From Acaryochloris marina MBIC11017 (GTDB taxonomy: Bacteria; Cyanobacteriota; Cyanobacteriia; Thermosynechococcales; Thermosynechococcaceae), in contig NC_009927.1 in NCBI RefSeq assembly GCF_000018105.1, positions 300,001 to 332,000 of the forward strand: DNA of 32,000 nucleotides, read 5' to 3'. The position numbers and the translations under genes were made by a program. Under the pieces are notes generated by a model. It made no database searches, had not been told where the DNA came from, and worked only from the letters and a program-made list of their open reading frames with translations. Shown one piece after another: positions 291 to 28,498 of the stretch; within the stretch, counting starts at the first letter, position 1, and every line of letters begins with the position of its first letter.

Positions 291-956
291 ATGAACAAGA
301 AAAATTTACTAGCATTAGCTTGTATATTACCACTATTTATTCAGGCTCCAGTCCATTCTGAATCTCAACAGCCTAGTGGTAGAAACTGCCGCCATATAAA
401 ATCAGTATTACAATTAGCAGATGATAATAATCTTGATACTGAAATTCTTATTAAACTCCAAGAAAAATATTGCTCTACTAACCATTCGGATAAACTATTT
501 ATTCTTCCTGAACAACAGACTGAAAAGACTTGCTCAGAGATAACAACTATAGGTAACTTCTCTTATGTTAGCAATGATCAACAATCCAGAGAACTATCAA
601 AGCAAATAGTTAATCGTTCAAAATTTATATGTAGATTTGATGATGGTAATGGATCATTTGATTGGGGAAATGGTCAAACAGCGAAATCAATAGGTGGTAC
701 TTGGTATTACCCAAATGGTCAAACAGCGAAATCAATAGGTGATACTTGGTATTACCCAAATGGTAACCGTGCTTCTTCTGTTTCTACCAGTTTATTGCCA
801 TGGGCTTGCGAAAAAGTAGAACAAGAAATATGTGATCGAAGGTTATCACTAGTTTCTAAGCTACAACAATCAAATGATTCAACTAATGAAGATTATAGAG
901 AATTTTATCTTAATCAATCTATTATTATGCTCGCTTGGCATGCACATCTTCAATAG
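291..956 (+). CDS. Hypothetical secreted protein (221 aa) with an N-terminal signal peptide and an internal tandem 15-aa repeat
   Basis: ORF track. The N-terminus MNKKNLLALACILPLFIQAPVHS looks like a signal peptide. The repeat GQTAKSIGxTWYYPN occurs twice. The gene is low in G+C. No family was recognised. Confidence 0.6.
   Translation: MNKKNLLALACILPLFIQAPVHSESQQPSGRNCRHIKSVLQLADDNNLDTEILIKLQEKYCSTNHSDKLFILPEQQTEKTCSEITTIGNFSYVSNDQQSRELSKQIVNRSKFICRFDDGNGSFDWGNGQTAKSIGGTWYYPNGQTAKSIGDTWYYPNGNRASSVSTSLLPWACEKVEQEICDRRLSLVSKLQQSNDSTNEDYREFYLNQSIIMLAWHAHLQ
668..764 (+). repeat. 45-bp tandem duplication (about 2.1 copies, one mismatch) inside ORF 291-956
   Basis: aaatggtcaaacagcgaaatcaataggtgGtacttggtattaccc at 668-712 is repeated at 713-757 with G changed to A. 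A third unit starts at 758 and then diverges. Confidence 0.9.
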
Positions 957-4373: not shown

Positions 4374-5261
4374 CTATACTCCAAAAGCCTCAAGGATTGT
4401 TCGTTCCATTTCATCAGCTACTTTCTTAAATCCTTGAGCTGATAAATGTAGCTCATTTTCCCAGTCTCCGTCTTTAATAATTATTCGCAAGTCGATGTGA
4501 TAGACATTATTTGGGTATTTATCAGATAAATCTTTAAGCATTTCATTGAGGCTATCAATAAGCCTTTTAGCTATCACTTTTCCTTCTGCTTGAGAAATCC
4601 CTTTTCGTCTTAGTGCAGGTTCAAACCAAGGTCCGATGAATTCGTAATCACCTATCTCAATGACAGCTCTTCCGTCAGGTGTTGGATATCCATAACCATG
4701 TAAAAATATTTTAATATCTGACTTTGCAGATATAACTTCTTTAATCAAAAATTCGAACATTTCATAAAATACTTTATTGGTCATAAAGTCAAGATAATCT
4801 TCTTTGAGGTGAATAGTACTCAATTGTGATCGAGAGTGATGTAAGAACGGTTCGAATTTAAAACCATTCGGTCCTGCAACATCATTACCTACGCCAGAAA
4901 ATAGAAAAAAGTCTGGTTCGTATTTATCTATAAGTGCTAAAGCTTTTACAAGTTGAGGGCTATTTACTAATGGATTTGTTCCAAAGGTCATATTTTCTAA
5001 GGTATCACCCGCCTTAGCAACTCGTAAAAGATTTATCTTACTTCGCATATTCAGTTGGTTGATAAGATCACCTAGCGAAATATCACTAACCCAAGCAGGA
5101 GGATAATCAAACCAAGAATCACCTTCAGCAATACCCTTTAAAGCTTCGGGTTTAATTTTCATTCGTAGTTTAAACCATTCTTCATTCGATTGATCACGAA
5201 AGCTTGAACTAGATGCATCAATAACCTCACTTTCAAATCTCAAATCATTAAGTCTTGACAT
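4374..5261 (-). CDS. SGNH/GDSL-type hydrolase (lipase/esterase-like), low GC
   Basis: GDSWFDYP (block I Ser), FSGVGNDV (block III GxND) and C-terminal NELHLSAQG (block V His region). There is no signal peptide. Hand-counted 60-nt lines give about 27-40% G+C. Confidence 0.7.
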   Translation of the reverse strand: MSRLNDLRFESEVIDASSSSFRDQSNEEWFKLRMKIKPEALKGIAEGDSWFDYPPAWVSDISLGDLINQLNMRSKINLLRVAKAGDTLENMTFGTNPLVNSPQLVKALALIDKYEPDFFLFSGVGNDVAGPNGFKFEPFLHHSRSQLSTIHLKEDYLDFMTNKVFYEMFEFLIKEVISAKSDIKIFLHGYGYPTPDGRAVIEIGDYEFIGPWFEPALRRKGISQAEGKVIAKRLIDSLNEMLKDLSDKYPNNVYHIDLRIIIKDGDWENELHLSAQGFKKVADEMERTILEAFGV

Positions 5262-5698
5262 AGATTTAGAGTTCCTTTTTTTTAGAAATTTCTAATACCG
5301 TAACTTGGAACTTTAATCCATATGTTTTATCTCAAAGTATTTTTTAATCTTGTGAATTAAATCTTAAGGATTCAGTAATGCAAGTGGAACTGACGGAAAT
5401 GGTTACCTAAATTTCTGGAACAGTGATTACTAGCTCAAATTTTTATGATCTCTGTAGTTAAACAGTCTTCAGATCGAAGGTGTTTAATTATTCAGTTCAT
5501 TCAATTGAGCAATTTGCTGTTCTATCCCTCTTTTATCACTTTGATAGGAGAGTATCTGTAAGCTTGAAATTGTGTTAGTACATGGCCTGGTGATTGGATT
5601 CACTCTAAACGGCCTTCCAATAGCGACATTTGCTGTTGGCGAATATGCTACAGAGTAGAAATTGATTGTAATAAAACCTTTTCCTTGGCGTGTCTTAA

Positions 5699-8515
5699 TT
5701 ACGCCGCTACGCCGACTTTTTTCTTGTCGTAGTTGTGTTGCTTCAGCATCTTGATTTCCTGAGTGGAAAGCTTCCCTGGCTGCTGTGAGTCGAGGGCAAA
5801 TCCCTCAGCCTTCGCGAAGAGCTCGTTCTCCGAAGGACAACCTTCAGGTAGGAAGAACACTGCATCCGACATGCGAATACGGCCGTCATTGTCGTGGTCC
5901 ATGTAGACCTGTCTGTCGGTGAGATCGACCAGATAGGATTTGTCGCCATCATGGACCCGATAGATCTCGTAGTTTTCGAGCCCTTTACCGGTCCAGTGAG
6001 CCTCTAGGTAAGCCGCACCAGCTCCGAAATCGAGTAGGTTTTCTTCGCCGTAGTCGACGTGTGATTCGATCGGGTGCGGGATGTTAGTCCGCATGTTGCT
6101 GAACGCGTTCGGCCGCTCTCTGCCCTCGAGATACTCCCGGAACTCATCGCCGCCGAAGAGGCCGAGAAGATGCTCGAAGGTGACCGCGTTGACGATGTTA
6201 GTACCGGTTGGAGTAACTTGTTCGGGCCCTGCGTAATTGGTGAGCCATTCGTTGTGCATGAACCGGGTAGACGCCTCCATCACGAAGTTCATAAACGTTG
6301 GATTGGGCACCGCGTAGCCTTCGGGCCGGAACTCGTCGGCGAGCTGCCCCATTCCCGTGGTCAGAAATAGTTCACCGCTCGCCTCGTTATAGGGGCCAAA
6401 GAGCTGCTCCCATCGTTGGATAACTTCCTGCGCATTCTTAGAATCGGGTTCTTTGAAAAGTTCGCGGTAGCTCTTGAGGCCCGGAATATTCAGACGTTCC
6501 AGAAAGCTGTTATATCTGCCTGTACCACGATCCAAGCCCCGCTGCACATCGGTTTCACCGATGCGCGTAGTGCCTCCGGCGGTTGCAAGGTGGGCGAACT
6601 CTGGTAGGTAGTTGTTGAGGGTGAATGCCCCAACCGAGGTGTTCATCAGCATGTGGGCGATACGGCCGATGCCTTCACGCTGGAGCAGTTCGTTTCCAGT
6701 AGAGCCGAGCGTCTCAGTGAGGGAAATAAACTCTCCACCTGCCACCGGTTTGCCTTGCTCATGAATATCGCAGAGAGCCATGTCGAACCCATCTGGCTGA
6801 AGCGCGTGGCCCACCGGACGATAGGTTTCCGAGAAGTCGAGACCTTTAAGTTCCGGATCCGAGAACATCTGCGCAATCTTCGGGTTGCCGGCGAGGCCGT
6901 GTAGGGCCGGATGGGTCCCTTTGTGCAGCGGATCGTGCACAAGCTTCTGGCGAAGCGGTGTTCTGCCCTGTAAGAGCCCAAATTGGTTGCTGTGCAGGGC
7001 CCGGGTTGCGGTCTCGTGGCCAAAGAGCATTGGCGTCCAAAATGCAGTGTGGACCTTGGCCCGGGTCTGAATGACGATGTTTGCTGCCTTCCAGTACAAC
7101 TGATTGTCAGTGAGTTCAGGATGTCGCTTAGCCAGAATGTCGCAGACCAAATTGTGGAATCGCACGTAAACCGTGCGAATGAGTGTAACTCCAATCGACA
7201 TATTCTGGTCGATACCAGTTTGGATCGTCTTAGCGCCACTCTCGTGCTCGATGTTAGGTAGCCACTTACCGTCTTGGAGGTAGATTTTACCGCCAGGGAG
7301 CATTTCGCCAGTGGCAGGATCGGTACGCATCCGCTTGACCGCCTCAGGGGTACTACCGCGGTCGGGGCTTCCGTCCCATGCATTCGTTGTGGAGGACAAG
7401 ACCGCGCCGGTTTTGGGATCTATCTCGTTGGCGCGAATCCAGACCCACTCAATGCCGAGCTCCGCCTCCGGAGACCCGGACGCCACCGGAATAGGTATCT
7501 TCTTATGCTCATTGAACGCGGGCATGAGAACGTCGTGGGGTAGGTCGAAGAGGTGGTCGATTGCGAACACGTTGAGGTGGTCGGCGGTTTCTCGCCGACC
7601 AGTCGCATAGAGCTCGGCCTGTGCAATTTCGGCCGCAGAGGGCAGCAGGTGTTCGTACTTGTTAGGCTTATCACCCAACCCGCCGTGGATCGGAATCGGT
7701 TGCCCCACCGCCCCTGCGCTTGGGAGATCGGGGTCGGTGAAAAAACCACCGGGGCCAGGGTGTTTGGCGGTGTAGCTCGAACTCAAGTCGCTCTGGGTCT
7801 TCATCGACTCCGGGATATTTCGACCCGCGAGGAGTTCATTTCGGTCGCTCGCTAGACGAAGCAAACCAATGGTGGAGGGGAGATAGGTCCAAATTCCGTG
7901 GCGCATCGCTTGGCGGTATTTGCCGAAGCGTGAGAATACGGTGTCCACAACCTTGAAGATACAGCTCGTTAACCCCTGGACGAGATCGAAGGCACCACCC
8001 AAGAGCAGATTGATGCCTTTCCGCCACAATGAGGGCTTCGGAACATAGACCTTCAGCGGCTCCTCATTAAAGTCCATGATGTCCTTGTTTGGGCCTTCCC
8101 AGAATTCGCGGAGCACTCTATTTGCGTCGCCGGAGCGGTAGGTATCGGTGATAGGGCTCTTACGTTCGACCGATTCACCATTCATAGCCGCCTGCCCTGT
8201 AACCCGAGCGCGATCTTGCCACCAGCTTGCATGGTTGGACTCTGGGAATCTTTCCCCTAATTCACGGAAGATTTTGGCTGCGCCCTTCGGGTCACCGCTT
8301 TCAAATTTAGCAAGGGCGAGGCGTTCGATGTCGGTTTGCGAGGCTGAGCCATCCGCTACCTTGATATTCAGAAGCGTGATGGCCTGGGCATGGTTCCCCG
8401 CGTTCATTGCCTCGAGCGGATCACCTGTCTCGAGGCCAGGCGACTGGGTGTTCAACTGTACATTCTTGCCAAAACCGAAGGGGCACTTGCTACCTGCGGA
8501 ATTCGGATCATTCAT
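5699..8515 (-). CDS. Haem peroxidase-cyclooxygenase superfamily protein (animal haem peroxidase / alpha-dioxygenase-like), 938 aa, with a C-terminal EF-hand-like loop
   Basis: Motifs VRFHNLVCD (7139-7165), AKVHTAFWTP, ETYRPVGHALQPD (6791-6826) and the EF-hand loop DHDNDGRIRMSD (5864-5899). An SD-like caggag lies about 8 nt upstream of the ATG. The gene is high in G+C and carries many shadow ORFs. Confidence 0.85.
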   Translation of the reverse strand: MNDPNSAGSKCPFGFGKNVQLNTQSPGLETGDPLEAMNAGNHAQAITLLNIKVADGSASQTDIERLALAKFESGDPKGAAKIFRELGERFPESNHASWWQDRARVTGQAAMNGESVERKSPITDTYRSGDANRVLREFWEGPNKDIMDFNEEPLKVYVPKPSLWRKGINLLLGGAFDLVQGLTSCIFKVVDTVFSRFGKYRQAMRHGIWTYLPSTIGLLRLASDRNELLAGRNIPESMKTQSDLSSSYTAKHPGPGGFFTDPDLPSAGAVGQPIPIHGGLGDKPNKYEHLLPSAAEIAQAELYATGRRETADHLNVFAIDHLFDLPHDVLMPAFNEHKKIPIPVASGSPEAELGIEWVWIRANEIDPKTGAVLSSTTNAWDGSPDRGSTPEAVKRMRTDPATGEMLPGGKIYLQDGKWLPNIEHESGAKTIQTGIDQNMSIGVTLIRTVYVRFHNLVCDILAKRHPELTDNQLYWKAANIVIQTRAKVHTAFWTPMLFGHETATRALHSNQFGLLQGRTPLRQKLVHDPLHKGTHPALHGLAGNPKIAQMFSDPELKGLDFSETYRPVGHALQPDGFDMALCDIHEQGKPVAGGEFISLTETLGSTGNELLQREGIGRIAHMLMNTSVGAFTLNNYLPEFAHLATAGGTTRIGETDVQRGLDRGTGRYNSFLERLNIPGLKSYRELFKEPDSKNAQEVIQRWEQLFGPYNEASGELFLTTGMGQLADEFRPEGYAVPNPTFMNFVMEASTRFMHNEWLTNYAGPEQVTPTGTNIVNAVTFEHLLGLFGGDEFREYLEGRERPNAFSNMRTNIPHPIESHVDYGEENLLDFGAGAAYLEAHWTGKGLENYEIYRVHDGDKSYLVDLTDRQVYMDHDNDGRIRMSDAVFFLPEGCPSENELFAKAEGFALDSQQPGKLSTQEIKMLKQHNYDKKKVGVAA

Positions 8516-9653
8516 ACTACACTCCTGTAGATTGCACTACTGTATTGCTTGGAAAAAGATTGTCGGTGCGGGAAATTATCCTAAACTGGGCTAGGTAGTT
8601 AACTCATAGATGTAAGTAGCCAAATTCACTAATATGGCAATGAGGAATTTTAAATTCTGTCCTCTTTTAGTTGTGTCGAAAATAATGATCTCAGTTACAA
8701 AAAATTCCTCTGAGTTTTATCCAAGACTATGCAGCCAATCTGAAGATTTGATTGATAAAAGAGATCTGTCCTATCACATCATCTTTGCGATGCAACCGCC
8801 TTGTGGATTTGGTTGTGTATTGAAATTATAATTAGCCATGATTACTGCTCTTTAATTCATGCATGATGCATAGTACTGTTTGTGTCCAATGGCAGGTAGT
8901 TTTGGGTGTTAATATACTCAGATAAAATCTATAAAAAAATAAAAAACACCTCAATAATTACTGTCATTTTGCAAAAAATTCAGTTCAAGTTTTAACAATA
9001 AAACTTTTCTATAGAACTATATTTACTCATCATTCCTTCTCTAAAGTTTTATGCGAAATGACATAAAAGTCCATATTTAGGAATTCGAAGTGAGGCAATC
9101 ATAGATCAATTCAAGTCTCTAGCAATTTTCATAATCTTGCTACTTAAGGGAATATGGTTTACCAAGTCTAAAAAAATATAATCTTACATCCTGAAAAAGC
9201 CTTGTCAAAAACATATCTGAATATGTTTAAATATTTGTTTTAATTATTGTTAGTTTGATTGAAATAATTCTTAAGGCTTATCGACTTCCATCGCTTCTGC
9301 GTCAATTTGAACTGAGTCAAAGTCAGAGTGTTGCACGAGTACATACCACCTCTCGCCAGGTCGTTTAGCTAGATCAGGCAGAAGGCAAATCACTTGTTTT
9401 CTTCGCAATCGTCTTGTACACACTCACTCCCACTGAGCTTTATGACTACTAGTTCAAATGGCTATTTGATTACGTCCCCGACTAAGTTAAATTGACTCAG
9501 AAACGGTCCTTTTGCCCACATCACAAGTTGGCATCGGAAAAGTGAGCAGGCCCTAGAGCAATTCAAAACATAAATGGATGCGATCCCAAACCCACCGACC
9601 ATAATCAAATTCTTCTGCTCTGAACCCTGCCTTTACTTGGGGATGCTGCATTA

Positions 9654-9878
9654 TTAGATTCTTCTAAGCTTGGTCCGAGCTTGGGACTTAGTATCGGGTT
9701 TAACCTTAGCCACTATCTCAACATCAGGGAATTTCTTGAGAACAGGTTTTTTGGACTCACCCTGGCAAATCCATCCGAGCAATAAATCAGGCTCATAACA
9801 GGGGTGGCTCCTCCCAGGATCAACCATGACAGGTTTTGGCGGGCAGTAGCAACGGATGATGATTTCATCAGATTCCAT
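9654..9878 (-). CDS. Hypothetical small protein (74 aa)
   Basis: ORF track only. Confidence 0.3.
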   Translation of the reverse strand: MESDEIIIRCYCPPKPVMVDPGRSHPCYEPDLLLGWICQGESKKPVLKKFPDVEIVAKVKPDTKSQARTKLRRI

Positions 9879-10188
9879 TAGGGAATTTGAAAGATTATAG
9901 TTGGGTCTCAGTTGGCTAATTTTAGGTGCAAATCGGAGGTGGTATCGGAATTTGCGATCGCACTATCCAGCTAAGGAGTACTCCACAGTGATTACTGCGG
10001 TAGGTATGCAGTCACGGTAAATAATTGATAACCACATTGGCAATCACAATAACGGTCACACCGACGTTCAAGCGAGTTTGTAAGCCTGAACAACGGTGTG
10101 GCGAACGGATTCCTTGAGGGCTAATACTTCGGACGATTCGAAGAGATTGATGCTTGGAATTTTCCTTTCTAATTAGATTGTTCTCTAC

Positions 10189-10950
10189 TCACTGGGAAAA
10201 ATAACTCCATTCAGCAGGATCCAAACCATAAAAATCTGAAAGTATTTTGTAAAGTTTAGAATGATTGAGTTTCATTGGTATCGGCTTTTCAAAAAATACT
10301 TCAGTTGCAACAGCAAAAAACTCGGCAAGGTCAGTAGCTCCATATTCATCGATGACTGTTACCATATTGTTTTCAACAGCACTTTGGAGTCTTTTATACT
10401 CATCCGTAATAATTTTATTCCATGTCATATATGCATGTTGAGGATTGAGACAGTTGAGAATGGGTACACCATCTGCACAACTATCTTCTTGATCAAGCTG
10501 ATGTGCAAACTCATGAAGAACTAAATTTTGTCCATCTTTCCAGTTTAATGCTCCAAGCTGTGCATGTTTCCATGAAATTCTTATCTGGCCCTTACGAGCA
10601 TTAGAGTCACCTAACCAGCTTCGACGCATATCTGTTACTACGAATTGATTTTCAATACGTTCAACTTTTTTGTTTATTGAATCAGGATAAATTAAAATTG
10701 ATGAGAGTAATGGATATGTTTTTCCTTTTCGATTAATAATTAAAAGGCACGCCTGTGCTGATATCGTTATTCTAATTTCATCTGTTATTTCTAATCCATC
10801 GCAGCCAAAGAACCTCTTATCATCTAGAAATATTAGAATCAAATCTTTTAGTTTGGATTGTAATGAAGATGGAAGAAAGTTATAGATAGGGATATTATTT
10901 TCTAGAATTTTTTCCCAATCTGATATGAATATTTTTTTGTGAATAGTCAT
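10189..10950 (-). CDS. MtfA-like zinc metallopeptidase (peptidase family M90), low GC
   Basis: LVLHEFAHQLD (HExxH), GVP, IDEYGATDLAEFFAVATEVFFEKP and FYGLDP follow the E. coli MtfA pattern as recalled. Confidence 0.85.
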   Translation of the reverse strand: MTIHKKIFISDWEKILENNIPIYNFLPSSLQSKLKDLILIFLDDKRFFGCDGLEITDEIRITISAQACLLIINRKGKTYPLLSSILIYPDSINKKVERIENQFVVTDMRRSWLGDSNARKGQIRISWKHAQLGALNWKDGQNLVLHEFAHQLDQEDSCADGVPILNCLNPQHAYMTWNKIITDEYKRLQSAVENNMVTVIDEYGATDLAEFFAVATEVFFEKPIPMKLNHSKLYKILSDFYGLDPAEWSYFSQ

Positions 10951-11174: not shown

Positions 11175-11489
11175 TTAAGACCCAGAGGCCGAGGCTGCAA
11201 GCTGCTCAAAATCGATTGGCTGGATGTCCTCATGCCGATCCTGTTGTAGTGCTTCCCATAGATCTCGATCCTGCTGCATTCCTAGCCAAGTACCTGCTGT
11301 TAGTCCCACGCCCTTCTCAAGGCGAATCGCCATGTCAGGTGTAACGGCAGCTTGTCCCGATACCAATCGGGAAATTGCAGAATGGGATACCCCTAGTGCT
11401 TTTGCTAATTGACGAGCGCTTAAACCGTAGGGTTCTAGATAGAACTCTTTGAGGGTTTCTCCAGGGTGGGGGGGATTATGCATCAGCAT
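11175..11489 (-). CDS. higA: HigA-family antitoxin (XRE-type HTH)
   Basis: HNPPHPGETLKE is followed by the HTH LSARQLAKALGVSHSAISRLVSGQ. The start overlaps the higB stop by 1 nt. Confidence 0.85.
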   Translation of the reverse strand: MLMHNPPHPGETLKEFYLEPYGLSARQLAKALGVSHSAISRLVSGQAAVTPDMAIRLEKGVGLTAGTWLGMQQDRDLWEALQQDRHEDIQPIDFEQLAASASGS

Positions 11490-11764
11490 TAGTGGTAGTC
11501 CTCATAGTCCAGAATATGAACGTCACCGTCTCTAAACTCAAACGTCAGTCGCCAATTCCCACTGACAGAGATGGACCAGCGACCTTTTTGGTCTCCTTTT
11601 AAGGGGTGCAACTTAAGCTGAGGTGGCAACGTGGATAGAACCTCGATACGATTCAGTAGCTCTAGTCTGAAGCGCAAGGATTTAGCATGTTTGGGCTGAA
11701 TCTTTGCGGTGCTTCCAGTTTCAAAGAATAGTTGCAAGCCTTTATGCCGGAATGACTTGATCAT
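11489..11764 (-). CDS. higB: HigB-family toxin (RelE-fold plasmid maintenance killer protein)
   Basis: MIKSFRHKGLQLFFETG ... LHPLKGDQKGRWSISVSGNWRLTFEF ... DYEDYH. The ATG at 11764 is preferred over the TTG at 11770 given by the ORF track. Confidence 0.85.
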   Translation of the reverse strand: MIKSFRHKGLQLFFETGSTAKIQPKHAKSLRFRLELLNRIEVLSTLPPQLKLHPLKGDQKGRWSISVSGNWRLTFEFRDGDVHILDYEDYH

Positions 11765-12360: not shown

Positions 12361-12538
12361 TATTGGATGTCAACCCCATAGGCGATGTCGCGACAACCAC
12401 AAGGCGGATCAACCCCCAAATTTGAACCGTATTATTTGGCGTACACTCCCTTTGCGTTAGCTCTTTTTCAGACCTCATACGATACCTTCAGAACAAAACG
12501 ACAACCCGTGATCGAAATGACAACCAGTGATCGCTCGA

Positions 12539-13357
12539 TTATTTGGACTGGGATTTTTGAGGTTGAGACTGAGTTTGAGCCGTTCTCTGAGTCGCTGATT
12601 TGCGCCGATAACTATCGGCTTGAATTTCGATAATCAAGCCATGATGAATTAAGCGATCAATGGCAGCCACCGCCATCATCGAATCAGTGAAAATGTCATC
12701 CCATTGGCTGAAGGGTTGATTCGCTGTAATCAACAAACTTTTTCGTTCATAGCGATGCGCAATTAATTCAAACAGAACGGACGTTTCCGCTTCCGACTTT
12801 TTGCAATAGCCCAAGTCATCCAAGATCAACAGATCATAGCGGTCCAGTTTTTTGAGCATTGGATGCAGCTGCAGTTGGAGCTTCGCCTGTTGCAGTTGCT
12901 GGACCAATGCGTTGGCTGCAAAGAACTTCACCCGCTTACCGAATTCCAGCATCTTTTTGGACACCCCAGTGGCCAGATGTGTTTTTCCAACACCCGAGGG
13001 CCCCAGAATAAGGCAATTCTCGGCGCGCTCCAACCAACCCGGATCTGCGGCTAATTGCATCAAGGGAGCTGGATTGAGCTGGGGACAATGGCTAAAGTCA
13101 AAGTTGGTAAAACTTTTTGCGTTTGGGAGCCTGGCTTCGGTGAGGGCACGTTTTAGACGAGCTTGTTCTCTTCGTTGGGCCTCCGTTTCGCACAAGGCTA
13201 GTAAGAATTCCGCATAAGACCAGTTTTCCTGCATGGCTTGGGATTCGATAGATTCCCAATGGGTCAACATGTGGGAGAGCCTGAGCTTTTTTAAATAGAG
13301 GCTCAGGTGCTGGTAGGGGCTCAGCGGGGACTGAGCAGGAGGGGAGGAGTTTGTCAT
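12539..13357 (-). CDS. istB: IS21-family helper ATPase IstB
   Basis: Walker A LILGPSGVGKTHLA and Walker B LLILDDLGY. The ATG at 13357 is preferred over the TTG at 13381. Confidence 0.9.
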   Translation of the reverse strand: MTNSSPPAQSPLSPYQHLSLYLKKLRLSHMLTHWESIESQAMQENWSYAEFLLALCETEAQRREQARLKRALTEARLPNAKSFTNFDFSHCPQLNPAPLMQLAADPGWLERAENCLILGPSGVGKTHLATGVSKKMLEFGKRVKFFAANALVQQLQQAKLQLQLHPMLKKLDRYDLLILDDLGYCKKSEAETSVLFELIAHRYERKSLLITANQPFSQWDDIFTDSMMAVAAIDRLIHHGLIIEIQADSYRRKSATQRTAQTQSQPQKSQSK

Positions 13358-14834
13358 AAAGTTCAAGTGAATGTTGTTCAATGCTGAGTTCAGGAACCTG
13401 CTTCATCTGAGGCGGCTCAAACTGTTTTTTCAGGCGATTGAGGGTAAGGCTGGATGAGCGAAGCTGCTGCTGTAAGTACACTGCTACGGCCTGTTCTTTA
13501 TCTTGAACCGCAGCAATATACAGGGCTTCCACGATGATCTTGGCAGCCTGCTCCAGGTCAAATTGGGCTTTGAGCTGTTCCCAGATTTGGCGGTATTCAG
13601 GATTGGGAAGTAGGTCTGATTGCCAGGTGCAATAGATAAAAGCACGAGGCTTCAATCGCATTGAACCAATAACATGGCGATAGTTGATGCAACGGTCGCG
13701 ACGTTTGCCTTTGCCACTGACGCGCTTCCTCGGCAATTCCACCACCGGGTGTCGCTCCAGATAGCCGACAATCCGGTCATGGTATAGATGCAGTTCCAAT
13801 TGACGACCAATCAGTCGAGAAGGGACGGTGTATAGAATGCAGCGAACATCGATGGTGCTGCGTTTGCTGACTTTAGCCGTGAGCACTTCATAGTCAGGGG
13901 TTCGATATTTGGGCAGTGGTTGTAGATGGTCTTTCTCTTGCTCATACTTGGTTTGGCACTGCTGATTCAACTTGGCAACCTGTGCATCAATTAAGGCTTG
14001 ATACTCAGCAACGCTCGTAAAATCTGCACTGCCGCGCAGATAGATCGCCTGCTTAATTCGGTTCTTCAGATGACCATGGGGAGATTCAATGGAGCCATTC
14101 TCATGGGCTACACCTTTGTTGTTACGAGTGGGTTCTAGCCGATAGTGGTCACACAGTTCGTCGTACAGACGAGTGAGGTTTTTGGACCGGCGGCCGCCCA
14201 TGTTGCGATAGGCTGCACTCAAACTATCAGTACGATGCTGTGTAGGAACACCTCCACAGGCTGCAAAGGCATTTTGCAATCCTTCTGAGAGGGCGACAAA
14301 GCTTTCGCCTCCTTCGATGATCTGGGCATATCGCCAGCCGCTGTATCCCAGACGGTAATGGTAAATCAGGTGCTCAAAGGGTTTGCCGGCAATGGTAATC
14401 GTGATGCCTTTGAGTTCTGTAAAATCGGAGAACCCTTGTACCCCTGGTTCATGACGCAATTCAAACATCACTTCAGGGCTTGGTCCATGTAAGGCTTTCC
14501 ACGTTCTCACCCGACGTTGTAGGGTCCGCAGGACTTGGGGATACTGGCCTGGATACTTATCCTGCAGGTACTCATACAGGGTCATGGGTTTGAGGCGTGG
14601 GTCTCGACGCAGCATTGGTTCTAGCTCGTCTTCCCACACATCAGCTAAGGGGTCGGGAACGGTGCGTTGGTCCTGAAGGCGGCCGCGATTAGGTTGATGG
14701 GTGCCGGCCTCAATTCGTTGTCCGGTTCTTGTAGATATTTCGGCAATGTAAGCTGCATCAGCTTGTTTTAAGCCGAGGTCTCTTCCGTTCATATAAACAC
14801 GAGTATGATAGGAATCAATTCTTTTGTTAGGCAC
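13098..14834 (-). CDS. istA: IS21-family transposase IstA
   Basis: N-terminal HTH region and a DDE-type core. ELYDKLL occurs where IstA proteins usually end, but the ORF continues about 85 codons into istB in another frame. Confidence 0.85.
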   Translation of the reverse strand: MPNKRIDSYHTRVYMNGRDLGLKQADAAYIAEISTRTGQRIEAGTHQPNRGRLQDQRTVPDPLADVWEDELEPMLRRDPRLKPMTLYEYLQDKYPGQYPQVLRTLQRRVRTWKALHGPSPEVMFELRHEPGVQGFSDFTELKGITITIAGKPFEHLIYHYRLGYSGWRYAQIIEGGESFVALSEGLQNAFAACGGVPTQHRTDSLSAAYRNMGGRRSKNLTRLYDELCDHYRLEPTRNNKGVAHENGSIESPHGHLKNRIKQAIYLRGSADFTSVAEYQALIDAQVAKLNQQCQTKYEQEKDHLQPLPKYRTPDYEVLTAKVSKRSTIDVRCILYTVPSRLIGRQLELHLYHDRIVGYLERHPVVELPRKRVSGKGKRRDRCINYRHVIGSMRLKPRAFIYCTWQSDLLPNPEYRQIWEQLKAQFDLEQAAKIIVEALYIAAVQDKEQAVAVYLQQQLRSSSLTLNRLKKQFEPPQMKQVPELSIEQHSLELYDKLLPSCSVPAEPLPAPEPLFKKAQALPHVDPLGIYRIPSHAGKLVLCGILTSLVRNGGPTKRTSSSKTCPHRSQAPKRKKFYQL

Positions 14835-15028
14835 TTGTACAGCCCTCTATTGATTAGGGATGTAAAAAGTGTCTTTTTTCTTGAGATTGAATTCTAGAAA
14901 CGCGATCTCACACATCATTTCTAGGGAATTGAGATCTAGTTTTATCCTTCTCAGGGGATGCCTGGTTTCTTCATAGCTATAGCCGACGTGACATCGTCAT
15001 TAATCCGTCAGCTCGATTGTCGTCTAAT

Positions 15029-22422: not shown

Positions 22423-23807
22423 GGCTCTCTGGGAATTAGCGTGTAGCAGTCCTACATTTAGTGTGTTTCCTTTTTCATCCCTATGGAATGATCTGAGGTA
22501 GTACTTCAGAGCAATGGCGTAATGGATAACTCAATTCGCATCCCGCTCAACCTTCCTGATATTCGAGTTCTAGAGCTATCGAAGACTGAGAGAGGGGATT
22601 GGCTCATCAAGATTGAGAGTACGCTTCAAGGAACAACCTGTCATCAATGCGGACGTGAGATTACTGACCTCCATTGTCATGATCAGCCTTTTCGGATTCG
22701 TCACCTGCCATTATTTGAAGTCCCCGTTTACTTAGAAATTCGGCCCAAGCGTTATCGATGCAAGTATTGCGATGACCATCCCACAACAACTCAACATTTA
22801 GAATGGCACGAACCTCGCAGTCCCAATACAAAAGCATATGAGCGTTGGCTTCTGCGAATCTTGATCAATTCAACGGTCTCAGATGTTGCCAGAAAACTAG
22901 GCGTTAGTGAGGATATCGTCAGTGGAATCATTGATCGTTGGATTGCCGCTCAAGTTGACTGGAGCGAATATGCAGACCTCAAAGTTATGGGGATGGATGA
23001 GATTTCTCTCAAACGAGGCCATCGTGATTTTGTGGTTTTGATCACGATTCCTACGACGGATGGGGTGGATATATTGGCAGTTCTAGCCGACCGTAAACAG
23101 CAGACAGTGGCAAATTTCCTTCAATCGATTCCCATTGATTTACGCCAAACCATTGAGCGCGTCTGTACGGACATGTACCAAGGATTTGTCAGTGCAGTCC
23201 GAGAACAATTGCCGCAAGCCAAAATTGTCATTGACCGCTTTCATGTGACCAAAGCCTATCGTAATTGTGCTGATACGGTTCGTAAACGTGAGGTCAAACG
23301 TCTACGACGAGAGCTCTCTAAGCAAGAGTATGACAGCATCAAAGGCGCGATGTGGCCTTTTAGAAAACGACCAGAGAATCTGAAAGAGTCAGAGCAACAA
23401 CTCCTTGAGCGATTGTTTGCTTATTCTCCACAACTGAAACAGGCGTACAACCTCCGAGAGAAACTCACGCAGATATTTGAGGGCAGGTACACCAAGCACG
23501 GAGCTAAATGTGCCATCCGTGCTTGGTGTAAACAAGTACTCAAGAGTGACATCAAGGAATTCGATTGTTTTCTGACCACTATCAATAATTGGATGGACGA
23601 GATGACCAACTATTTCCTGGAGGGGTGGACCAGTGGTTTTGTGGAAGGATTTAATAACCGAGTCAAAGTCTTAAAAAGACGATGCTACGGTATTTTCGAT
23701 ATTGAAAGACTCTTCCAAAGGATTTCTCTTGACCTCAATGGGTATCAGACATTCGCTGTGACCTAAACACTATATCTAGCGGCTACCACGCTAATTCCCG
23801 GAGAGCC
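22423..23807 (+). mobile_element. ISL3-family insertion sequence (1385 bp), apparently intact
   Basis: Terminal inverted repeats are GGCTCTCTGGGAATTAGCGTG (22423-22443) and the reverse complement of 23787-23807, GGCTCTCCGGGAATTAGCGTG (20 of 21 match). It has an 8-bp TSD and a single transposase ORF. Confidence 0.95.
22522..23766 (+). CDS. ISL3-family transposase (414 aa)
   Basis: N-terminal zinc-finger-like CHQCG...CKYC. Also MDEISLKRGHRDFVVLI, CTDMYQGF, DRFHV and GFVEGFNNRVKVLKRRCYG. Confidence 0.95.
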   Translation: MDNSIRIPLNLPDIRVLELSKTERGDWLIKIESTLQGTTCHQCGREITDLHCHDQPFRIRHLPLFEVPVYLEIRPKRYRCKYCDDHPTTTQHLEWHEPRSPNTKAYERWLLRILINSTVSDVARKLGVSEDIVSGIIDRWIAAQVDWSEYADLKVMGMDEISLKRGHRDFVVLITIPTTDGVDILAVLADRKQQTVANFLQSIPIDLRQTIERVCTDMYQGFVSAVREQLPQAKIVIDRFHVTKAYRNCADTVRKREVKRLRRELSKQEYDSIKGAMWPFRKRPENLKESEQQLLERLFAYSPQLKQAYNLREKLTQIFEGRYTKHGAKCAIRAWCKQVLKSDIKEFDCFLTTINNWMDEMTNYFLEGWTSGFVEGFNNRVKVLKRRCYGIFDIERLFQRISLDLNGYQTFAVT

Positions 23808-24049: not shown

Positions 24050-25087
24050 TCAATTTGTTGATGAGCCAAGATCCCTAGCGAAATTATTTCTTAAGTGCAC
24101 TGAGTAATATTCAGGCGCATGATCAATTAGACTGAATTTAATATCATTAAAATTTTTTGAAATGATACTTGCTGTTGACTCAAAAATATTCTGGGAAGAA
24201 TTAATCAAAATATCATTATAATCTACTTTTTTACTCGGGTAAGTAGAAATATTGGTATTCTTATCAATATGTTTTAATTCTCCTACATGTTGATATAACT
24301 CTGGAAGTTGAAAAGAAGATAAAGGGGAATTAAACCGAGGGAAAGGAATATTCGGAAATGGTGTTTCGACAAGTTCTACTGATATAATTAAATCAGATAG
24401 AGGAAACTTTGTAATTGCATCATTATTATTAACAAATCTGAATATCTTTCCTTCTAGTTTTTTGTCAATACTATCAACAAATTCTGAGTTTCCTACTTTT
24501 GGGCAACCATAAGTGTAGATTCCTTGTGCTTTACCGAATCTGCTAGCGGCAAGAATAGCAAGAGCACCTCCTAGACTATGTCCAGTGAACCATAAGTACA
24601 TTTCTTGGTTTGTATCAATGAGCTCTTGGAGATATCCTTTTAAGTTTGGACCTTTCTCCCAAATCTCATCCAGAGCAGCTTTAAAACCCTCATGAGTTTT
24701 ACCTATTATGGAAGAATCAACCAGCTTTAATCGAGCATCGATGAGGACATCTTGGACAAAATTTGATCTCTTTATCTCAGTACCACGAAAAGAGATAATA
24801 GAGAACTTGTCATTACTAGCTACATAGCATTGAGTGCTACTACCTGAGAAGAGTTTAGCCTTATTAAGACCAATCTTTTTGAAATGTTGCTCACACACAG
24901 GTTCATTTTCTATATATGCTAAAAAAGCGCTATCTGCTAAACGCCAAGCATTAACTAATTGATATTCATTGCTATCATACTTAAAATGGTGAGTATCACC
25001 TTCTTCAAAATAATTGTATTCATGATTAGGTGGAATTAATCTATTGAGATTTTGAATAGAACCTGAAGGTGGTTGTACTATTTCCAT
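24050..25087 (-). CDS. Class-3 (fungal-type) lipase family alpha/beta hydrolase, low GC
   Basis: Nucleophile elbow FTGHSLGGALAILAA and IISFRGTE strand motif. There is no signal peptide. Hand-counted lines give about 23-38% G+C. Confidence 0.85.
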   Translation of the reverse strand: MEIVQPPSGSIQNLNRLIPPNHEYNYFEEGDTHHFKYDSNEYQLVNAWRLADSAFLAYIENEPVCEQHFKKIGLNKAKLFSGSSTQCYVASNDKFSIISFRGTEIKRSNFVQDVLIDARLKLVDSSIIGKTHEGFKAALDEIWEKGPNLKGYLQELIDTNQEMYLWFTGHSLGGALAILAASRFGKAQGIYTYGCPKVGNSEFVDSIDKKLEGKIFRFVNNNDAITKFPLSDLIISVELVETPFPNIPFPRFNSPLSSFQLPELYQHVGELKHIDKNTNISTYPSKKVDYNDILINSSQNIFESTASIISKNFNDIKFSLIDHAPEYYSVHLRNNFARDLGSSTN

Positions 25088-25821: not shown

Positions 25822-27507
25822 CTATTTTGCCAGTATGTCATTCAATGCTGAAATCGCAGGCGCAAACAAATACTCTCCACCAGTCGGCACAACAAAATCT
25901 TGTTGGGTTTTAATTTCAGTCGTCTGGTGTTCACCGGGGAACTCGATATGCCGTTCTCTATTCCCTGTCGATCCGTTCTGGCCTATGACCATGTCGTGCC
26001 CACCTTGATTTGGCTGAATTGCTGAGTTCGCCCAACGTCGTTGTAAAAACTCAAACTGATCTTCAATACTTGAGTTATAACAAACAAACATTAAACCTCT
26101 GTCTAGCAGTAAGTCCTCATCGCTTAAATCTGGATTGCCAGCGATCGCTGGTCCATAAGGTATGCCGCGGCGCAAGATCATTCTAGCTAAGTTATCTTCT
26201 GGCTTTCCTAAATCGGTAACACTTTCTCTCGGATTGACTTTTCTAATGTGCGCGAAATGAGGGCAAACTTTGGCGAGAAAATCAGCTTTCGCCTGTGGAA
26301 ACGAGTCTCCTGGATAATGGCTATCACTGAACTCAATTTCGCTTGTGTTGTCGTCAAATAGAAAATGATTGTTTGCAAACGCGTTTTTACCAAGCTCAGG
26401 CAATTCACTGTTAGGGCTTCGCATCAATGGAGCACCACTAGGCCAGCGACCAACCAAACGAGAGGCAAACTCTATTACGTCAATGTTTAATGATTCCGCA
26501 GTGCTACTAACAAACCCCCAAAACGCGGACACATCTTGATGTAAGCGTCTTACTACCACGTAAGAGCCAAGCTTTGCCCAGCCGGGAATATTTGTCTGGA
26601 TTCGCCCTTTAAGATATAAGTGTTCAGTGCTTTGACGTGGCTCTCCTAAAAGAAACTGACCTGGCCAAACCAATAACTGCCCTGGCTTGGCAAAATAATC
26701 TTTGCGTTCGTCGGTACCAGCCACATAACGTGGGGTGATAAAATCGCCAGGGCGTTCAGACAGTTTTCCCCGTATTCCCGGCTGCGAAATGCCATCTTTA
26801 AAGCCAAAATGTTCGTGGCCTCTAAACTTGCCTGGTAACCGCTCCCCTGGTTGTTCATATTGCAACTCGATGCCCTGATCTTGCGCATGTTGTTTTATCA
26901 ATGCCACAAATTCTTGCAACTGATCTTTGGAGTTCGCAGCGGTCGTGATCATCATGTCGATCTCATTATTGGTACCACCAAAACGCCAATTCGATTGATG
27001 GCCAGGACTAGATTCATCGCTAGGATCACCTAAGAAAGTTGACCTTTTGGCCATTCCCAAACGAAAACTGTCATCACCAAATTTATTGGCTTCTTCATCC
27101 GAGGTTAGTTTTGCTATGCCCGTGTATGAAAATGACAAATTCAACCAAGCTGACGACAAATAAGTTTCCCTTTGACCCAGTTGAGCTCGGCGTTGCCGAT
27201 GTATTTTTCGAAACTTTAAAACTTCATAAGCGCTGGATATAGATACATAGGGGGAAATTAAACGCAAGAATTGTTTAGGAGAGCTGCCAACTCCAAAACT
27301 TAAAAACAAAAAGTGCTCATAATTGGTATTAAACCCGAGCAGTAAGTTTCCTTGTATATCTGACAGTGTGGCTTCGTTGTAAATAGGTTCGTCAGCCGAT
27401 TGATCGTATGGACTGGGCTCAGGTTTATGCTCTAGCGGTGTATCGTCAATATTTGCTTCAATAGTTGAAAATAAGTCTTTTAGTTCCGTGAAATTAGCGT
27501 TGTCCAT
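25822..27507 (-). CDS. DyP-type haem peroxidase (561 aa, long form, no Tat or Sec signal)
   Basis: DIQGNLLLGF, FGFKDGISQPGIRG (GxxDG), HFAHIRKVNPRE (proximal His region), LRRGIPYG and GLMFVCYNSSIEDQFEFLQRRW. AGGAGA lies about 10 nt upstream of the ATG, within the end of the upstream gene. Confidence 0.9.
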   Translation of the reverse strand: MDNANFTELKDLFSTIEANIDDTPLEHKPEPSPYDQSADEPIYNEATLSDIQGNLLLGFNTNYEHFLFLSFGVGSSPKQFLRLISPYVSISSAYEVLKFRKIHRQRRAQLGQRETYLSSAWLNLSFSYTGIAKLTSDEEANKFGDDSFRLGMAKRSTFLGDPSDESSPGHQSNWRFGGTNNEIDMMITTAANSKDQLQEFVALIKQHAQDQGIELQYEQPGERLPGKFRGHEHFGFKDGISQPGIRGKLSERPGDFITPRYVAGTDERKDYFAKPGQLLVWPGQFLLGEPRQSTEHLYLKGRIQTNIPGWAKLGSYVVVRRLHQDVSAFWGFVSSTAESLNIDVIEFASRLVGRWPSGAPLMRSPNSELPELGKNAFANNHFLFDDNTSEIEFSDSHYPGDSFPQAKADFLAKVCPHFAHIRKVNPRESVTDLGKPEDNLARMILRRGIPYGPAIAGNPDLSDEDLLLDRGLMFVCYNSSIEDQFEFLQRRWANSAIQPNQGGHDMVIGQNGSTGNRERHIEFPGEHQTTEIKTQQDFVVPTGGEYLFAPAISALNDILAK

Positions 27508-27511
27508 CTTT

Positions 27512-28498
27512 TTAATTCTCCTGCCCTTTTTGGGTACCTGCTGAGCCCACTATGCCGACCGTAATGTGCTCGGCTAGCTGTGCGCCATACTGAATTTCAT
27601 GGCCGCCAATGGTCAAGTCACTTACTTGAAAACCTAAAGCTTTAGGAACGGAATACTCCAAACGCATAACCTTGCCATTGGAACCTCTCTTGGGTTGCCA
27701 CCACTCAATAGGGGCAGGTGAGCCGTCCGGCTGAGCGATTCCACTGTTGTCCCAACCAAAAATATAAATGCCAATAGGTTCTTGAAGGCTGACGTATAAT
27801 TTTTTGCGCAATAGCATGTGGACGTCGTAATCGACTCTTGGATCGACCGATGTCGTATATGTTGCAAAAGCTGGGTTAGCCTGATAGTTGTTGGCAGCAT
27901 CAAGCGGGAACATGCTCATTTCTTCTGCCAGGCCAATAGCAGCGCCGAGAGTATTAATGTCTTGAGTGAAATGCATTATGCCGTCAGTTGTGTTCCAGCG
28001 ATTTAGAATATCATAGTCGCCATTTCCATTCATTAGGTCATCTTTTTTAACTGGTTTATCTAGGGTGTCTTTATAAATTTCAACGACTTTATCAGGATCG
28101 AATTTCCACATCTCTTCATAGTAGTTGTGCAGCTCAGTGGTAAAAGTAATCCTTGTAATGGCGTCATCGTCTTTATGGACATACCATTCAAAATATTCGT
28201 CTTGCTCATGCCCTCTATCTTTTCGGTTCGCATTGTCTGCAGTTCTATATGCTTCCCATTTGTTGTCTCGTAAGTTTGGCAATAAGACCCTTCTTGGAAA
28301 TCCCATCCAGCTAATGGTTTTTTCTCCAATGATATCGACATCCACCTCAGCTGGATTATAAAAATGCCCCCCATTGGGGCCTGGAGTCTCTTCTGCGATA
28401 AGGCCTTTTACAAATTCATGCCATTTTTCATAGAAATCACTATCGTCATCAAAATCTTTAATAGACGCAGGTGTGTCAAATTGAGTAATCAGAGACAT
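27512..28498 (-). CDS. Hypothetical protein (328 aa) translationally coupled to the DyP peroxidase gene
   Basis: AAGGAG lies 7 nt upstream of the ATG. Its stop is separated from the dyp ATG by 4 nt. No family motif was recognised. Confidence 0.75.
   Translation of the reverse strand: MSLITQFDTPASIKDFDDDSDFYEKWHEFVKGLIAEETPGPNGGHFYNPAEVDVDIIGEKTISWMGFPRRVLLPNLRDNKWEAYRTADNANRKDRGHEQDEYFEWYVHKDDDAITRITFTTELHNYYEEMWKFDPDKVVEIYKDTLDKPVKKDDLMNGNGDYDILNRWNTTDGIMHFTQDINTLGAAIGLAEEMSMFPLDAANNYQANPAFATYTTSVDPRVDYDVHMLLRKKLYVSLQEPIGIYIFGWDNSGIAQPDGSPAPIEWWQPKRGSNGKVMRLEYSVPKALGFQVSDLTIGGHEIQYGAQLAEHITVGIVGSAGTQKGQEN

Follow-up and report, generated by a model that had tools for sequence, protein, structure and literature searches.

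A rare long form of alpha-dioxygenase-like haem protein encoded on a large plasmid of Acaryochloris marina MBIC11017

The textbook examples of tyrosyl-radical haem oxygenases include the alpha-dioxygenases (alpha-DOX), the cyclooxygenases (COX) and the linoleate diol synthases of fungi, and a fixed Tyr-x2-His geometry belongs to this picture. Alpha-DOXs also serve as biocatalysts for fatty aldehydes. Here, we describe a related gene from the cyanobacterium Acaryochloris marina MBIC11017, which is located in a 32,000-nucleotide stretch of plasmid DNA (contig NC_009927.1, positions 300,001 to 332,000; the window). The list of open reading frames (ORF) in the window contains a minus-strand ORF of 938 amino acids at positions 5699-8515, and all sequence features of this gene given below refer to the minus strand. 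The encoded protein is identical to A. marina WP_012167232.1 (ABW32086.1, UniProt A8ZLQ9), which the databases name only 'peroxidase family protein' or 'heme peroxidase'. Our literature search found no paper naming WP_012167232 and the A. marina transcriptome paper does not mention the gene. Sequence comparison and structural modelling place the protein in the peroxidase-cyclooxygenase superfamily and indicate that it most probably works like an alpha-DOX. With reasonable, though not strong, confidence we regard the protein as a haem enzyme of the alpha-DOX lineage, either soluble or located at the membrane surface, which has a rare three-part long form and was acquired as a single-gene cassette.

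The plant alpha-DOXs (rice, PDB 4KVJ/4KVL; Arabidopsis alpha-DOX1, 4HHR/4HHS) share with the A. marina protein the distal and the proximal His, the catalytic Tyr with its stacking Phe residues, the His/Arg pair binding the substrate carboxylate, a Thr, the residues of a putative Ca2+ site and the N-terminal helices. However, the sequence identity amounts to only 19-22%, the Tyr-to-His motif reads Y-x4-H instead of Y-x2-H, and the A. marina protein involves 938 residues compared with about 620-640 for the plant enzymes. The difference includes about 160 additional N-terminal residues (Cys-Pro motif and repeats resembling the tetratricopeptide repeat, TPR) and about 130 additional C-terminal residues (DxDxDG loop). 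Stand-alone bacterial enzymes of the alpha-DOX type with the same catalytic residues have been described in cyanobacteria (CalDOX of Calothrix, LepDOX of Leptolyngbya, Cs-alpha-DOX of Crocosphaera; PMC8720084). Unlike the A. marina protein, these are short forms with the canonical Y-x2-H spacing and without extensions. In our alignments, the short-form cyanobacterial type was represented by P0022 and P0023 (594 amino acids, VYRMHPLIPD), and the A. marina protein shares about 26% identity with the short-form bacterial proteins. The classical haem peroxidases (Cyanobacterium TDX16, 8S6C; LPO; MPO) exhibit the same superfamily fold and their proximal motif also ends with G-H, but their distal motif and their QIITYxEFLP motif are absent from the A. 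marina protein, and in the fold comparison they reached E-values of about 1e-17 versus 1e-28 for alpha-DOX.

Family placement and active site

When we searched the 938-residue protein against Pfam, residues 288-784 matched PF03098 (An_peroxidase) with 91.2 bits (E = 7.6e-26), which is well above the gathering threshold of 25; no NCBIfam model matched. In a single-sequence search of the PDB, rice alpha-DOX (E = 3e-25) and Arabidopsis alpha-DOX (3e-17) were the best solved relatives. With a family profile, these values changed to 4e-111 and 7e-103, and the alignment spanned nearly the entire alpha-DOX chain. Sequence matches to COX and to the halide peroxidases were confined to a short central segment. 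The structure was modelled with AlphaFold2 (AF2) from a 93-sequence alignment (mean predicted local distance difference test score, pLDDT, 91.2; predicted template-modelling score, pTM, 0.93), and a model from a shallow 22-sequence alignment (pLDDT 46.6) was discarded. In a Foldseek comparison of the retained model, the two alpha-DOXs came out on top with target-normalised template-modelling (TM) scores of 0.83 and 0.80 (E about 1e-28), whereas the peroxidases reached at most 0.76 (E about 1e-17 or weaker) and COX about 0.63. The profile match, the alpha-DOX alignment and the fold comparison delimit an alpha-DOX-like haem catalytic core at residues of about 190-810 (6086..7948). An initial annotation of this DNA, which was made without database searches, had assigned the ORF to the fatty-acid-oxygenating branch of the superfamily rather than to the classical halide peroxidases. 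This was right on both counts, and the placement can now be sharpened to the alpha-DOXs, which are the nearest relatives by sequence and by fold and lie well ahead of COX and the halide peroxidases.

Instead of the distal G-Q-x-x-D-H-D motif and the QIITYxEFLP-type helix of a classical peroxidase, the protein carries FDLPHDV and AKVHTAFWTP. Compared with WGQFLDHD and QIITYNEFLP of 8S6C, these motifs therefore identify the protein as alpha-DOX-like and not as a classical peroxidase. On the other hand, the Y-x2-H spacing and the single-domain organisation of about 600-640 residues, which go along with alpha-DOX, are both lacking. Thus, the protein is a variant of the alpha-DOX family and not a plain member of it.

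To map the active site, we used the residue numbering of rice alpha-DOX (PMC8720084), and the register of the HMMER alignment was confirmed by the Y379F mutant chain 4KVL. The distal His157 of the rice enzyme corresponds to His327, His311 to His489, Trp315 to Trp493, Thr316 to Thr494, Phe375 to Phe561, the catalytic Tyr379 to Tyr565, the proximal His382 to His570, Phe549 to Phe741, Phe552 to Phe744, Ala556 to Ala748 and Arg559 to Arg751. In an alignment of 149 relatives, each of these positions is conserved in 90% or more of the proteins. Both haem-ligand histidines are thus present and conserved, and Tyr565, whose stacking residues are Phe561 and Phe744, is invariant in the family. The distal His327 (7535..7537) is part of the invariant motif FDLPHDVL. 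The segment T377-N-A-W-D381-G-S383 (7367..7387), which is conserved and aligns to T216/W218/D220/S222 of the Arabidopsis enzyme, may constitute a structural Ca2+ site together with Asp328. Asp328, Thr377, Asp381 and Ser383 are all conserved, and their counterparts are presumably the structural Ca2+ ligands of Arabidopsis alpha-DOX1 and of peroxidases.

The motif VRFHNLVCD (residues 451-459, 7139-7165) precedes AKVHTAFWTP (residues 486-495, 7031-7060), which contains His489, Trp493 and Thr494 and, by analogy to rice His311, Trp315 and Thr316, would bind the substrate carboxylate and position its C-alpha. The catalytic Tyr and the proximal His are part of ETYRPVGHALQPD (residues 563-575, 6791-6829), where Y565-R-P-V-G-H570 (6806..6823) has two extra residues between them. 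Farther downstream, Phe741, Phe744, Ala748 and Arg751 (6263..6295) would line the substrate channel and provide the carboxylate-binding Arg, as their rice counterparts suggest. The initial annotation had quoted several of these peptides, and the ORF is real and contains every one of them. The coordinates it gave for VRFHNLVCD and for the C-terminal loop DHDNDGRIRMSD were exact, but those for ETYRPVGHALQPD (6791-6826) were short by three nucleotides.

The Y-x4-H spacing, which had also been noticed from the sequence in place of Y-x2-H, is a constant property of this protein: Y-R-P-V-G-H is invariant in 20/20 orthologues. Among the 149 relatives, the spacing is x2 in 123 proteins, x3 in 8 and x4 in 14, and the x4 group consists of the family of the A. 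marina protein plus P0025. Inside the clade of long forms the spacing is graded, with x2 in P0030, x3 in P0024, P0026, P0027 and P0028, and x4 in P0025 and the A. marina family. The proximal motif Y-R-V-G-H of the classical peroxidase 8S6C is an x3 motif. The Tyr-to-His spacing thus varies within the superfamily, and the A. marina family lies one residue past the classical peroxidase and two past alpha-DOX and COX. In the AF2 model, a single helix covers residues 559-571 and includes both Tyr565 and His570.

Terminal extensions and distribution of the long form

The N-terminal extension proper comprises only about 160 residues. The profile alignment to rice alpha-DOX begins at chain residue 32, which corresponds to profile position 191, and from about residue 190 onward the N-terminal helices of the rice enzyme are aligned. 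Thus, the earlier statement that roughly the first 120-300 residues match nothing recognisable holds for residues 1 to about 160, but it fails from about residue 190 onward. When the N- and C-terminal extensions were searched alone, no significant sequence match was found in the PDB. At the very N-terminus, residues 1-17 are predicted to be disordered (pLDDT below 50). This tail carries an invariant Cys11-Pro12 (K-C-P-F, 8480..8485), which is present in 20/20 family members and also in the distant relatives P0024, P0026 and P0030, and is followed by Phe, Leu, Met or Ile. Such a Cys-Pro pair with a following hydrophobic residue resembles what we take to be a haem-regulatory motif, and haem binding at this position is putative.

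Residues 32-112 (8180..8422) form TPR-like helical repeats. TPR_6 of Pfam scored 19.2 bits, below its cut-off of 26.3, and TPR_14 was also sub-threshold. The family profile aligned repeat by repeat to consensus TPR proteins over residues 32-99, with weak per-repeat E-values (0.06-0.3), and the AF2 model shows helices between residues 33 and 112 (pLDDT 89-98), which are paired at 42-112 to form two TPR-like repeats. The profile alignment and the modelled helices agree with the TPR-like stretch suspected earlier, but its scores are weak and stay below the Pfam thresholds. Amphipathic or hydrophobic helices follow at residues 163-230 (7826..8029), modelled as 163-194, 198-206 and 214-230. On the basis of the alpha-DOX profile alignment and the model, they are the probable counterpart of the N-terminal membrane-side helices of alpha-DOX and may have a corresponding role at the membrane. 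Since the residues from about 190 onward align to these alpha-DOX helices, the hydrophobic helix GINLLLGGAFDLVQGLTSCIF (residues 167-187, 7955-8017) is most likely the first membrane-side helix.

The C-terminal domain (residues 811-938, about 130 residues; 5702..6085) is specific for the clade and was modelled with high confidence (pLDDT 89-97) with strands at 851-856, 859-864 and 869-872. It has no match in PDB or Pfam, and when it was searched alone, only fragments of the same family and no other protein context were retrieved. It contains the DxDxDG calcium-type loop DHDNDGRIRMSD (residues 873-884, 5864..5899), which satisfies the 12-residue consensus D-x-[DN]-x-[DN]-G-x-[ILV]-x-x-x-[DE]. 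Asp873, His874, Asp877 and Asp884 are invariant and Asp875 and Gly878 nearly so. The loop is kept in relatives of 30-37% identity, with position 12 being Asp in the A. marina family and Glu in P0026 and P0027. It is present in 15/149 alpha-DOX-like proteins, every one of which belongs to the long-form clade. When the protein sequence was shuffled 20,000 times, the strict EF-type pattern appeared in 36 shuffles (0.18%) and thus the loop is beyond chance. However, no Pfam EF-hand family matched the protein at E-values up to 1, and there is a single loop, while EF-hands are usually paired. In the AF2 model (pLDDT 94-97 in this region), the loop follows strand 869-872 in a small beta-sheet and precedes short strand segments, so that the helix-loop-helix arrangement of an EF-hand is missing. 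Of the 'EF-hand tail' in the initial annotation, the real, conserved and clade-specific 12-residue loop therefore stands, but not the EF-hand. On the basis of sequence and model, we prefer to call it a calcium-type DxDxDG loop that lies outside an EF-hand and may bind Ca2+.

The long form is rare. An exhaustive HMMER search of 1.84 billion representatives clustered at 50% identity yielded 504 matches, only 10 of which had E-values below 1e-30, and a word-indexed search with alignment added nothing to this set. The whole family sharing 70-90% identity corresponds to one 50%-identity representative. Both extensions are present only in P0024-P0029 and partly in P0030, which makes about six 50%-identity clusters. 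Twenty orthologues and also distant relatives retain the three-part architecture from end to end.

Horizontal acquisition

The gene has a G+C content of 55.9% (65.4% at third codon positions, GC3), whereas the rest of the window has 42.6%. A profile in 100-nucleotide steps rises from 0.39 to 0.51 at position 5700 and drops from 0.57 via 0.41 to 0.31 across 8500-8700, so that the steps coincide with the ORF edges. As background, we used 827 segments of 2817 bp from 180 kb of the host plasmid, which gave a mean of 0.454 (standard deviation 0.031) and a maximum of 0.511. None of them reached the value of the gene (z = 3.4), and its composition is thus far from the replicon average. The only DNA of the window that matches contig L014, the source of the closest relative (P0002), is the segment 5679..8598 (89% DNA identity). 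It consists of the ORF flanked by about 83 bp on its 5' side and about 20 bp on its 3' side and agrees with the G+C steps. Since homology to this contig is limited to 5679-8598, only one gene was transferred, along with about 83 bp preceding it that include the Shine-Dalgarno sequence AGGAG (8522..8526, read directly six bases 5' of the ATG). No direct or inverted repeats flanking this segment were found. A candidate sigma-70-like promoter (TTAACT-16-GATAAT, 8575..8602) falls within the conserved upstream stretch; it is a consensus match only, and the number of such sites in this region is no higher than in shuffles.

Orthologues with 79-83% identity are located on contigs of the Cyanobium/Prochlorococcaceae type with 58-63% G+C, where the gene itself has 53-57%, and one of these picocyanobacterial-type contigs also carries ChlH. 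A second subgroup (70-74% identity) is found on contigs of 59-63% G+C. In this subgroup, the loci L007 and L015 are probably non-cyanobacterial; for L007, a gene for a sigma-54 activator on the contig suggests a host outside the cyanobacteria. Three contigs (L004, L005, L006) are labelled Sphingobacterium (thalpophilum), Gammaproteobacteria and Chthoniobacteraceae in public records of metagenome-assembled genomes. We did not adopt these labels, since a block of these contigs is syntenic with the Cyanobium-type contigs and about 90% identical to them; the three contigs are therefore also picocyanobacterial and probably mis-binned.

In a neighbour-joining tree, the A. marina protein and the 90%-identical metagenomic P0002 are sister to the picocyanobacterial clade, and both nodes had 100% bootstrap support. 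The ratio of nonsynonymous to synonymous substitutions (dN/dS) was 0.16 versus P0002 (dS 0.34) and 0.09 versus the picocyanobacterial genes, which indicates that the gene has been kept under purifying selection. The gene is real, intact and horizontally acquired. The earlier suggestion of acquisition from a high-GC donor agrees with the G+C content of the orthologue hosts and with the tree. Our data support a high-GC donor whose lineage is closest to the Cyanobium-type picocyanobacteria and a large conjugative plasmid as the recipient replicon. For A. marina, this is one more clear case of single-gene acquisition on large plasmids.

Strain MBIC10699 of A. marina carries a conjugative plasmid of 393.6 kb, pREC1, with which the window is colinear at 99.9-100% identity. 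The window differs from it by an additional IS21 element (istA/istB, 12361-15028), an additional ISL3 element (22423-23807) and a difference of about 100 bp near 668-764. Because of the otherwise near-perfect identity, the window comes from a sister plasmid.

Gene neighbourhoods and possible function

In the picocyanobacterial contigs, the dioxygenase gene heads a conserved same-strand block and is followed by genes for a divergent cytochrome P450 (456 amino acids) and for proteins of 146, 436, 487-499 (DyP-like) and 424 amino acids (L001:9084-19000, L008:10001-18944; also L002, L004, L005 and L009). Three proteins of this six-gene block have no match in Pfam or PDB. The flanks of the block vary and some loci include a Tle1-like phospholipase. 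The block looks like an undescribed lipid-oxidation operon. The Cys pocket and the ExxR motif can be recognised in its P450, which lacks the acid-alcohol pair of the I-helix, a sequence pattern that would be compatible with a peroxide-using P450.

In the fungal DOX-CYP fusions (linoleate diol synthases, Ppo) and in Nostoc, where a 10S-DOX acts with a separate hydroperoxide lyase, the dioxygenase is similarly paired with a second haem enzyme that converts the hydroperoxide (PMC13049297). In contrast to the fungal enzymes, the bacterial arrangement is an operon and not a fusion, the dioxygenase is alpha-DOX-like and not 8/10-DOX-like, the P450 is absent from A. marina and the pairing is known from the genes only. 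At the divergent second-subgroup loci, a gene for a caleosin-like protein of 269 amino acids is located directly upstream on the same strand (L007:131-940, L015:5137-5946). This protein matches PF05042 with 35.6 bits, including an EF-hand loop DRDQSGxI. The arrangement parallels plant alpha-DOX1 and the caleosin CLO3, which catalyse coupled reactions (PMC6914826), but the bacterial protein covers the first quarter of the caleosin model only, and the window contains no such gene. When we searched the window and 180 kb of the plasmid for remnants of the caleosin-like gene and of the picocyanobacterial block, the only match was a DyP-like paralogue of 30% identity at a distance of 17 kb.

If the A. 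marina protein works like the plant alpha-DOXs, peroxide would oxidise the His570-ligated haem, and the oxidised haem would generate the tyrosyl radical at Tyr565. A free fatty acid would enter carboxylate-first, be held by His489 and Arg751 and have its chain positioned by Thr494. The tyrosyl radical would then abstract a hydrogen at or next to C-2, and addition of O2 would give a hydroperoxy fatty acid, which would either yield CO2 and the aldehyde shortened by one carbon or be reduced to the hydroxy acid. Three features are specific for the clade, namely the two additional residues separating Tyr from His, the N-terminal domain (Cys-Pro, TPR-like) and the C-terminal domain with its calcium-type loop, and they probably adjust the geometry, the regulation or the binding of partners. 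Where it normally occurs, the enzyme may head a lipid-oxidation cluster, whose other members include a P450 and a DyP-like protein in the picocyanobacteria and a caleosin-like protein elsewhere.

Several observations weigh against this interpretation. The alpha-DOX activity of the long-form clade is deduced from homology to the plant enzymes only, and the Y-x4-H motif is unlike that of every characterised alpha-DOX and COX, so that the Tyr may have another position with respect to the haem and the substrate. The P450 of the block was considered as a CYP74- or CYP152-type enzyme, but it exhibited no special affinity to either of them or to any known hydroperoxide-converting CYP. The caleosin match covers only positions 4-46 of a 170-position model, and the partner genes did not accompany the dioxygenase into A. 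marina. As for the origin of the gene, the neighbour-joining tree is simple and consists mostly of metagenomic sequences, and the donor cannot be named precisely.

The unusual spacing is also the starting point for a different assignment, in which the protein is a haem dioxygenase for fatty acids or other carboxylates, but not an alpha-DOX. Here, the shifted tyrosyl radical would attack another carbon (for instance C-3 or further along the chain) or another lipid, and the P450, the DyP-like and the caleosin-like proteins would convert the products. The invariance of Y-x4-H and the stepwise change from x2 via x3 to x4 inside the clade would fit this, as would the dedicated downstream enzymes in the operons and the fact that related DOXs of the same fold oxygenate C-8, C-9 or C-10 (PMC13049297). 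However, the carboxylate anchor specific for alpha-DOX is fully kept, as is the Thr, and the stacking register of Phe561 and Tyr565 is unchanged, which favours chemistry near the carboxyl end. Thus, we consider a non-alpha dioxygenase unlikely.

A function mainly as peroxidase, in peroxide detoxification or in the oxidation of small substrates and with a non-catalytic Tyr, appears more doubtful still. The proximal R-x-x-G-H resembles Y-R-V-G-H of 8S6C, the databases annotate a 'peroxidase family protein', and a DyP-type peroxidase and other oxidative enzymes are encoded nearby on the plasmid. However, the classical distal motif is lacking, the distal His is preceded by Pro326 where 8S6C has WGQFLDHD, the alpha-DOX motif AKVHTxxWT replaces QIITYNEFLP, and the similarity to alpha-DOX in fold and sequence is far greater than that to peroxidases. 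Alternatively, the gene might be a functionally orphaned passenger in A. marina, an intact but useless remnant of the cluster on a plasmid rich in insertion sequences. The transfer of one gene alone and a neighbourhood that is a mosaic of IS21, IS110, ISL3 and genes of very different composition would be in line with this. Nevertheless, we give this idea very little credence: the ORF is intact and has a Shine-Dalgarno sequence, a dN/dS of 0.16 at a dS of 0.34 versus the closest relative indicates constraint over substantial divergence, and plant and cyanobacterial alpha-DOXs act as stand-alone enzymes (PMC8720084). We therefore prefer the alpha-DOX-like assignment.

A clade that keeps the whole substrate site of alpha-DOX but has a longer Tyr-to-His spacing and two new domains constitutes a natural experiment on how the position of the radical relates to specificity. 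The neighbourhoods suggest an unstudied lipid-oxidation operon in abundant freshwater and coastal picocyanobacteria and bacterial counterparts of the fungal DOX-P450 and the plant DOX-caleosin partnerships. If such a variant differed in specificity or were controlled by Ca2+, it could be useful as a biocatalyst. More speculatively, the long forms might represent a distinct regulated class of haem dioxygenases, in which the shifted Tyr (Y-x3/x4-H) confers a new specificity and the N- and C-terminal domains gate the enzyme via haem or redox state, Ca2+ or docking. They would then start unrecognised bacterial oxylipin pathways (dioxygenase-P450-DyP-like and dioxygenase-caleosin) that resemble the DOX-CYP fusions of fungi and the alpha-DOX/caleosin couple of plants and might even be older than these. 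We advance this idea tentatively and would sooner expect it to fail than to hold.

Among the other genes of the window, a 295-residue ORF (4374-5261, minus strand) directly downstream of the dioxygenase shows a sub-threshold GDSL match (E = 0.002) with visible GDS and GNDV motifs, and a class-3 lipase (Pfam E = 8e-25) is encoded at 24050-25087 (minus strand). Both genes are very AT-rich (GC3 0.22-0.23), and either of these putative lipases could supply free fatty acids. A DyP-type peroxidase of 561 amino acids (25822-27507, minus strand) is 30% identical to the DyP-like protein of the operon. The composition of the GDSL-like ORF, the lipase and the DyP gene, the latter two being located 16-19 kb away, is host-like or AT-rich, and thus they were acquired separately. 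Four bases upstream of the DyP gene there is a 328-residue ORF without family match (27512-28498, minus strand). It was considered as a counterpart of the 436-residue operon protein, but the two are unrelated. An 802-residue ORF of the window was likewise considered as a caleosin relative, but the pairwise E-values were 5e-5 with one caleosin-like protein and 3.6 with its orthologue from the second locus, and the match was rejected as chance. Four genes of the window (291-956, 4374-5261, 10189-10950 and 24050-25087) have GC3 values of 0.18-0.23 and deviate from the plasmid average to the same extent as the dioxygenase gene, but downwards instead of upwards. Donors of opposite composition have thus contributed to the window, which is a DNA mosaic.

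The dioxygenase gene is overlapped on both strands by long shadow ORFs (245, 148, 109 and 100 amino acids), as the initial annotation had pointed out. The adjoining 1.6 kb upstream of the gene (8599-10188) contain no ORF of more than 74 amino acids and no Rfam match, with G+C values of 0.22-0.39 up to position 9200; no Rfam family was found anywhere in the window. The matching plasmid record lists a HigA/RelE-type toxin-antitoxin pair (11175-11764, minus strand) between the gene for an M90 peptidase and the insertion sequences. A few kb beyond the left end of the window, ferritin-like and tyrosinase-family proteins are annotated on pREC1 (L010:3375-7323), and this plasmid region thus holds several oxidative metalloenzymes.

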